The position numbers and the translations under genes are program-made. The notes under the pieces are model-generated. The model was not told the origin of the DNA. It saw only the letters and a program-made list of their open reading frames with translations, and made no database searches. Shown here piece after piece: positions 21,618 through 22,730 of a DNA stretch of 64,000 bases; the first letter of the stretch is position 1, and each line of letters starts with the position of its first letter. This DNA comes from Escherichia phage Turkey5: the sequence record PQ471516.1, one strand, 5' to 3'.

Positions 21618-22730
21618 ATGAAAAAATATCTCGTGGGTGGATTCGTCCGCGACCGACTACTGGGCTTACGTGCTAAAGACAAAGATTATGTCATTGTCAG
21701 TGCGTCTGAATCTGATATTAAGTACTTGAAAAGTATTGGGTACAAACAAGTCGGTATTGATTTCCCTGTATTCTTGAGTCCAGAGGGAAATGAATATGCA
21801 TTAGCCAGGACTGAACGTAAAGTCGGTGTAGGCTACAATGGCTTTGAAGTTAATACTAAAGGTGTAACCTTAGAAGAAGACTTATATCGCCGTGACCTCA
21901 CCATCAATGCTATTGCATACGATCCAGTACTGCAAATTCACATCGACCCATACGGTGGGAAAGATGATATTAAGAATAAAGTACTGCGTCACGTTTCAGA
22001 GCATTTCAAAGAAGACCCATTACGTGTTCTTCGTCTTGCACGCTTTGCAACACGATATAATGACTTTACAATTCACGAAAGTACTGTTACAATGTGCACT
22101 GAAATGGTTAGTACTGGTGAGTTGAATCATCTTGTACCAGACCGTGTGTATGTTGAATTTGAAAAAGCATTCTCTGAAGAGAAACCTGCCAAGTTCCTGA
22201 AAACACTGGCTAATTTCGGCTATTATGAAAAAGCATTTACTAAAACACTAACCCGTAAGGTATTAGAATTGGTTGATAATATTTCAGATAATTGTACAGA
22301 AGCATATAAGCCATATTTCATTTGGAGTGCACTTCTCGAAACAGAAGAAGTAAATAAAGACTCAGTACTGAACGAATCAATTAAAATGCCCGTTAAGTAC
22401 GTGAAGTTTAGCAATTATGTAAAACGATTCCGTGATGATATCAAGACATTCCGTAAGAAAACACCTGAAGAGATGGGTGCGTTGTTACTGGAAATGAACA
22501 TTCGAAATAACGGTGGGGAAGAATTCCTGTACAAAGTGCTGGAGTACTTTATTCTTCGTCGTGAAATCGACCTTGAACTTGAAGATTTGATTATTAAGGT
22601 GTATGATCGTTACACCGATACTGTATTACCTGATATTGAAGAAATGGTTAAAGACGGTTCTCTGGACAAGAAAGATATTCGTGACTTTGTACAAGGTTTG
22701 CGTATTACTGAAATCCAGAAAATGTTCTGA
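21618..22730 (+). CDS. cca: CCA-adding tRNA nucleotidyltransferase (class II head domain)
   Basis: VGGFVRDRLLG...KDKDYV (GGxVRD ... DxD) and RRDLTINA motif. Confidence 0.8.
   Translation: MKKYLVGGFVRDRLLGLRAKDKDYVIVSASESDIKYLKSIGYKQVGIDFPVFLSPEGNEYALARTERKVGVGYNGFEVNTKGVTLEEDLYRRDLTINAIAYDPVLQIHIDPYGGKDDIKNKVLRHVSEHFKEDPLRVLRLARFATRYNDFTIHESTVTMCTEMVSTGELNHLVPDRVYVEFEKAFSEEKPAKFLKTLANFGYYEKAFTKTLTRKVLELVDNISDNCTEAYKPYFIWSALLETEEVNKDSVLNESIKMPVKYVKFSNYVKRFRDDIKTFRKKTPEEMGALLLEMNIRNNGGEEFLYKVLEYFILRREIDLELEDLIIKVYDRYTDTVLPDIEEMVKDGSLDKKDIRDFVQGLRITEIQKMF

Follow-up and report, generated by a model that had tools for sequence, protein, structure and literature searches.

A CCA-adding enzyme gene in a tRNA-less stretch of Escherichia phage Turkey5, with a probable role in the maturation of distantly encoded phage tRNAs

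Why should a phage carry a gene for finishing tRNAs in a region where no tRNA gene can be seen? The question is raised by a 64,000-nucleotide (nt) stretch of Escherichia phage Turkey5 (sequence record PQ471516.1; this whole stretch is called the window hereafter), in which a first-pass annotation, made by reading the sequence, reported a cca gene coding for a class II tRNA nucleotidyltransferase with a GGFVRD...DKD head. The next paragraphs discuss what this enzyme is, where its substrates are likely to be found, and why the completion of phage tRNAs encoded without CCA, along with the maintenance of tRNA 3' ends, is probably its main job.

The cca gene occupies positions 21618..22730 of the + strand, stop codon included, and encodes a protein of 370 amino acids (aa) that begins with MKKYLVGGFVRDRLLGLRAKDKD. 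The open reading frame (ORF) starts 9 nt past the stop codon of the preceding one, and a Shine-Dalgarno-like AAGGA is found 7 nt 5' of its ATG. Pfam recognizes the PolyA_pol head (PF01743, E 6.8e-19) at residues 4-124 and the PolyA_pol_RNAbd domain (E 4.5e-8) at residues 149-206, and the top NCBIfam model is that of the CCA addition/repair protein (NF008137, 275 bits). The phrog_2244 profile spans the whole protein (E 6.3e-113, 379 bits; protein residues 1-369 match positions 3-387 of the 392-position profile), and the nearest database protein is 98% identical. The gene is a member of a known and already annotated phage family (phrog_2244), the role of which was proposed over a decade ago: a function in the maturation of the phage's own tRNAs was put forward in 2013 for RaK2 gp031 (PMC3622015).

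The head of the protein (residues 1-125, 21618..21992; this and the following parts of the gene are all on the + strand) is a catalytic domain of the Pol-beta type that contains motifs A, B and C and the A-B loop. The motifs were compared in an alignment of 30 sequences, namely, the window protein, 22 phage-type homologues and 7 cellular-type homologues. Motif A (residues 7-23, 21636..21686), which was read from the sequence and provides the metal-binding carboxylates, has G7, G8, R11 and D12 invariant in GGFVRD (7-12) and D21 and D23 invariant in DKD (21-23). The same holds for R91, R92 and D93 of motif B (RRD, residues 91-93, 21888..21896), which pairs with the RRD of the Thermotoga maritima and Planococcus CCA-adding enzymes, and for D110, P111, G114 and D117 of motif C, which is of the DxxGGxxD type. 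The neck follows (residues 126-206, 21993..22235; PolyA_pol_RNAbd at residues 149-206), and motif D (EDPLRVLR, residues 132-139, 22011..22034), the protein template that selects CTP or ATP, has D133, P134, R136 and R139 invariant and E132 present in at least 90% of the sequences. The role of motif D as a nucleotide-selecting template is established for class II enzymes. Motifs B, C and D align with the same motifs of the CCA enzymes in the PDB, all the catalytic motifs of the window protein are intact, and the class II assignment of the first-pass annotation is borne out by Pfam, NCBIfam and the motif alignment.

The A-B loop (ALARTERK.G.GY.GF), which reads ALARTERKVGVGYNGF in the window protein (residues 61-76), is conserved at 10 of its 16 positions in phage and cellular sequences alike, and accounts for the further invariant head columns A61, L62, A63, R64, E66, K68, G72, Y73, G75 and F76. 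This flexible loop is required for the addition of A76, and, as Neuenfeldt et al. reportedly found in 2008, it is deleted in enzymes that add CC only. Its presence and invariance argue against the proposal that the protein has a different specificity, as an A-adding or CC-adding half-enzyme, or as a poly(A) polymerase with a role in RNA tagging, e.g., of host mRNAs for decay. Furthermore, cellular CCA-adding enzymes share 55-61% identity with the head and neck, a similarity that is confined to the first ~55% of the protein and ends at about residue 202-225, and the Cca model reaches 275 bits versus 99 and 50 bits for the two PcnB models (TIGR01942 / NF008634), both of which remain below their cutoffs (98.8 bits, cutoff 305.65; 49.9 bits, cutoff 702). 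A paralogue that could serve as the partner half-enzyme was not noticed in the annotation of the closely related phage vB_EcoM_JNE01, described below, although no systematic search for one was made. What favors a different specificity is that the whole protein falls under all the NCBIfam equivalog cutoffs, and that its C-terminal half, a region that influences substrate handling in this superfamily, is specific to the lineage.

This C-terminal half (residues 207-370, 22236..22727) is all-helical and forms the equivalent of the body and tail, devoid of an HD active site. Past residue ~225, no sequence match was found in Pfam, NCBIfam or the PDB. The region is nevertheless kept in the RaK2-like jumbo-phage homologues, with the motifs NGGEEFLYKV..EYF and KVYDRY, and full-length identity ranges from 48 to 82% among phages of Escherichia, Klebsiella, Cronobacter, Erwinia, Salmonella and Xanthomonas; conservation of this extent across six host genera indicates purifying selection. 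The predicted model of the protein is confident and well packed, with a helical C-terminal half, and class II enzymes can be superposed on 285-343 of its 370 residues. The structural matches are the Aquifex aeolicus A-adding enzyme and the Escherichia coli poly(A) polymerase, along with the CCA-adding enzymes of T. maritima, Geobacillus stearothermophilus, Arabidopsis and human. In the model, the class II architecture (head, neck, body and tail) is therefore retained throughout. The fold alone cannot tell which nucleotide pattern is added, and it is the sequence scores that favor Cca. Poly(A) polymerase, which the fold search does not discriminate, was rejected as anything but a low-probability rival, since the scores lie far under the PcnB cutoffs and much below that of Cca. 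Taken as a whole, a specificity other than CCA addition is judged very unlikely.

Residues 207-370 contain no histidine, Pfam detects no HD phosphohydrolase domain (PF01966; metal site H...HD...D), and the window protein has "LE" at the column where two aligned cellular homologues have "HD". As the HD site is missing, the enzyme should not heal phosphate-blocked ends and would extend 3'-OH ends only. By the same token, the phage enzyme is expected to lack three activities of E. coli Cca (phosphatase, 2',3'-cyclic phosphodiesterase and 2'-nucleotidase), and the "multifunctional ... 2'3'-cyclic ..." labels given to some relatives (phage A4) are probably over-annotations. A multifunctional Cca of the E. 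coli type was considered as an identity for the window protein and ruled out, on account of the missing HD site, a score of 275 bits that falls short of the equivalog cutoff of 451 bits, and a match limited to positions 1-202 of the 409 of the profile.

The loss of the HD site, together with a C-terminal half that has diverged from cellular Cca, might also be expected of a passenger gene of bacterial origin that is decaying or no longer functional. However, the reading frame is intact and has a Shine-Dalgarno-like sequence upstream, the catalytic residues are all invariant, the full length is kept in several phage genera at identities down to 48%, and the predicted fold is confident, with good packing, so that this explanation is hardly credible. 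Judged from its sequence, the gene product is in all likelihood an active CCA-adding enzyme.

Where, then, are the tRNAs? ARAGORN finds no tRNA genes in the 64-kb window, even when introns or tmRNA (transfer-messenger RNA) are allowed, and Rfam gives nothing at the gathering threshold; even at E<=1 it reports no tRNA. Hidden or degenerate tRNA genes were also considered, but the three low-grade calls produced by ARAGORN with relaxed settings (ps90) all fall within long protein-coding ORFs and were rejected. The absence of visible tRNA genes, noted earlier by eye, is matched by both programs, and no tRNA cluster emerged in the window from ARAGORN, relaxed ARAGORN or Rfam.

The answer was obtained from a relative. 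Matches to the region are found in 45 jumbo-phage records. Escherichia phage vB_EcoM_JNE01 (Asteriusvirus, 355,583 bp), in which the gene carries the annotation "CCA tRNA nucleotidyltransferase" (WOL22719.1), is the closest, being 98.7% identical. The window is colinear with JNE01 positions 51,260-116,175 at 97-99% identity, save for a 1.5-kb mosaic patch at 78%. The first-pass annotation had proposed to run tRNAscan-SE and ARAGORN on the complete genome; with JNE01 as a proxy, ARAGORN returns 8 tRNA genes, which share the + strand and lie at 246,282-253,813, and none elsewhere. The cluster lies ~171 kb from cca and ~130 kb beyond the right end of the window, and its use as a query retrieved 52 phage records, all with matching tRNA-cluster sequence and mostly from jumbo relatives. 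With one cluster of ~7.5 kb in 355 kb, a random 64-kb window misses it ~80% of the time, and a tRNA-less window is therefore the expected outcome and no anomaly. More generally, when a gene seems to lack its partner and only 64 kb of a 355-kb genome are in view, the limits of the window are usually the cause. Given a relative that is 97-99% identical, the Turkey5 genome would be expected to carry the same cluster. Thus, the first of the two explanations offered at the outset, that the phage tRNAs lie elsewhere, gains support by proxy from the 8 genes of this relative.

The 3' ends of these genes, inspected in JNE01, 121Q, Salmonella SD-2_S15 and Erwinia pEa_SNUABM_47, provide a reason for the presence of cca that the first-pass annotation had missed, its overall interpretation being supported in part: roughly one in two tRNA genes of the lineage has no encoded CCA. 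In JNE01, the discriminator is followed by CCA in Leu-UAA, Gly-UCC and a 90-nt CAU tRNA (3 of 8), and by other sequences in Ser-UGA (TCAATA), Ser-ACU (CAAAAA) and the two Thr-UGU genes (CAAATT in the first and CAAATA in the second); a CAU tRNA with a poor acceptor stem is ambiguous, which brings the CCA-less genes to 4-5 of 8. Genes with an encoded CCA number 3 of 6 in 121Q, 3 of 6 in Salmonella SD-2_S15 and 7 of 15 at the locus examined in Erwinia pEa_SNUABM_47, and these three phages all have the same cca family. The anticodons fit the A/U-ending codons that are frequent in the genes of the window, which has a G+C content of 37.6%: the codons matching UAA, UGU, UGA and ACU make up 26% (TTA), 29% (ACA), 22% (TCA) and 32% (AGT) of their families. 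By comparison, CCA is encoded in all the tRNA genes of E. coli (PMC5372718), and for this reason the host Cca is a dispensable repair activity only. About half of the phage tRNA genes without CCA versus none in the host is a concrete and testable reason for a phage cca gene.

Other features of these tRNA genes deserve mention. In the four related jumbo phages, the CCA-less genes nearly always continue from the discriminator with C-A and then with an A/T-rich sequence (CAAAAA, CAAATT, CACATT), a pattern that may represent an encoded C74 or a common 3'-processing signal. JNE01 positions 249165-249432 hold in tandem the Ser-ACU tRNA (A34), the 90-nt CAU tRNA, which has a long variable arm, and another CAU tRNA whose acceptor stem has only 4 of 7 pairs, and a gene for an HNH homing endonuclease is located inside the cluster at 251560-252084.

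On this basis, the following mechanism may be proposed. The class II enzyme would add C74-C75-A76 onto tRNA 3'-OH ends in a template-free manner, and its principal substrates would most likely be the phage's own tRNAs, transcribed from the cluster ~170 kb away. The CCA-less transcripts would first undergo trimming, for which host RNases are presumably responsible, and only after extension could they be charged. With an enzyme of its own, the phage would free the maturation of its codon-matched tRNAs from the host, and the same activity could mend frayed CCA ends, on any tRNA, in the course of infection. As CCA-less transcripts cannot be aminoacylated before CCA addition, the phage enzyme is a coherent companion to the tRNA set.

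Several points weigh against this role. The tRNA cluster is observed in the near-identical relative and not in the window's own genome, and cca is not linked to it. The Met-CAU call in JNE01 is doubtful (a 4/7-bp acceptor stem), and the exact CCA counts are soft. The host already has a Cca enzyme, and the phage copy is not obviously required; indeed, according to Deutscher, Foulds and McClain in 1974, T4 reportedly relies on the host Cca for its CCA-less tRNAs. Finally, enzymatic activity is inferred for every member of this phage family, and so are the CCA-adding activity and the substrate preference of the window enzyme. Even so, the maturation of phage tRNAs remains the probable main function.

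The lineage-specific C-terminal half could also confer a substrate preference that the host enzyme lacks, either for unusual phage tRNAs, which may include the A34 Ser-ACU, the 90-nt long-arm CAU tRNA and the transcripts ending in discriminator-C, or through the evasion of a host factor that restricts Cca. This is a rather improbable idea; if true, the phage would possess a private channel for tRNA maturation and not a simple duplicate of the host Cca.

The second explanation offered in the first-pass annotation was the repair of host tRNAs cleaved by anticodon or acceptor-end nucleases. The anticodon part does not hold, since a CCA-adding enzyme cannot mend breaks in the anticodon loop, a task performed by the products of separate genes. 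These genes are found in JNE01, which encodes a T4-type RNA ligase 1 (Rnl1) at 15,903-17,045 (PF09511 4e-16 and T4_Rnl1_C 9.4e-15) and a T4-type polynucleotide kinase/phosphatase (Pnkp) at 18,141-19,085 (HAD_PNKP 1.4e-42 and a P-loop kinase), outside the window and 57 kb from cca. The two form a pair for the repair of anticodon breaks that the JNE01 record labels as "hypothetical protein" only, and RaK2 has the same pair (PMC3622015). Anticodon-break repair by Rnl1/Pnkp and 3'-end synthesis by Cca are thus separate and unlinked modules in this lineage. As for the acceptor end, the repair of trimmed 3' ends by the phage enzyme is plausible and compatible with a role in maturation.

It may be asked whether such repair is the primary function, the enzyme serving in counter-defense to rebuild the 3' CCA of host and phage tRNAs trimmed by nucleases or toxins, alongside Rnl1/Pnkp. 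A CCA-adding enzyme was listed among the RNA-repair components of jumbo phages by Iyer et al. 2021 (PMC7824862), the T4-type Rnl1 and Pnkp are present in the lineage, and the neighbors of cca are of a stress or conflict type (a homologue of a ribosome hibernation factor, a NUDIX hydrolase, a macro-like protein and a glutaredoxin); moreover, counter-defense and maturation are compatible. However, an enzyme lacking the HD phosphoesterase site would extend 3'-OH ends and not the cyclic-phosphate ends left by most toxin RNases, its gene does not share an operon with the Rnl1/Pnkp pair, which is 57 kb away, and no E. coli defense system that specifically attacks 3' ends or removes CCA was identified in this analysis. 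As the CCA-less phage tRNA genes already suffice as a reason for cca, counter-defense is unlikely to be the primary role, and tRNA maturation is preferred.

Around cca, small auxiliary genes follow one another in the same direction. Upstream are a lysozyme-like ORF (19755-20120), the homologue of the ribosome hibernation factor S30AE (20137-20463, + strand, Pfam 4e-11), located 1.1 kb from cca, and two ORFs with no assigned function (20520-21296). Directly downstream is the NUDIX hydrolase gene (22841-23239, +), and then come those for the glutaredoxin (23236-23490, +), the macro-like protein (24065-24541, +; PHROGs "phosphatase" phrog_335 1e-43, Pfam Macro E 0.009), a deoxynucleoside monophosphate (dNMP) kinase-like protein (26477-27109) and the tail sheath (27198-29861). 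With the S30AE homologue, this series of genes includes a second auxiliary function related to translation. Nothing in the neighborhood of cca demonstrates a dedicated RNA-repair operon. One such scheme, an "NAD-dependent RNA repair operon" formed by cca, NUDIX, macro and glutaredoxin genes, in which ADP-ribose 1''-phosphate, a by-product of tRNA splicing, would pass to the macro protein and then to the NUDIX enzyme, was considered and rejected, because neither Tpt1 nor a ligase was found close by, Pfam supports the macro assignment only weakly, and the ligase and kinase of the lineage are 57 kb off.

Some additional observations concern other parts of the window. The mosaic patch extends over 18622-20122, where identity to JNE01 drops to 78% between flanks at 97-99%, and it includes the lysozyme-like ORF. 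At 47000-58387 on the - strand, two adjoining giant ORFs (2120 and 1628 aa) share repeated segments with ~75-80% DNA identity; in the comparison with JNE01, the segments at 51.3-53.4 kb and 56.8-58.4 kb cross-match. Presumably, they are paralogous structural or fiber proteins. Lastly, sub-threshold Rfam matches to small RNAs (MicX, E 0.019; sraA, E 0.98) occur on both strands at 43972-44083, at the junction of the convergent genes 43114-44043 (+) and 44077-46041 (-), and this element is most likely a bidirectional terminator hairpin.

When compared with known systems, the window enzyme is closest to the RaK2-like tRNA nucleotidyltransferases (RaK2 gp031, JNE01 WOL22719.1, 121Q and GAP32), which have the same length of ~370 aa, the same domain order and a full-length alignment, with identities from 98% down to 54%. 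In JNE01, the gene neighborhood of cca is also the same, there is no substantive difference from these enzymes, and the window gene is a slightly diverged allele. E. coli Cca (NF008137) has a closely related head and neck, with all the class II motifs and the A-B loop, whereas its C-terminal half is unlike that of the window protein and has the HD domain that the phage enzyme lacks. The enzymes of T. maritima (3H37) and G. stearothermophilus (1MIV) are more distant, with only 23-24% identity and with a body and tail that have no detectable sequence similarity. The most instructive parallel is with T4, which, like this lineage, has CCA-less phage tRNA genes in a host where all the tRNA genes encode CCA, and in which Rnl1 and Pnkp are likewise present. 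T4 is not known to encode a CCA-adding enzyme of its own, and relies on the host Cca and RNase BN. Unlike T4, this lineage brings its own CCA-adding enzyme.
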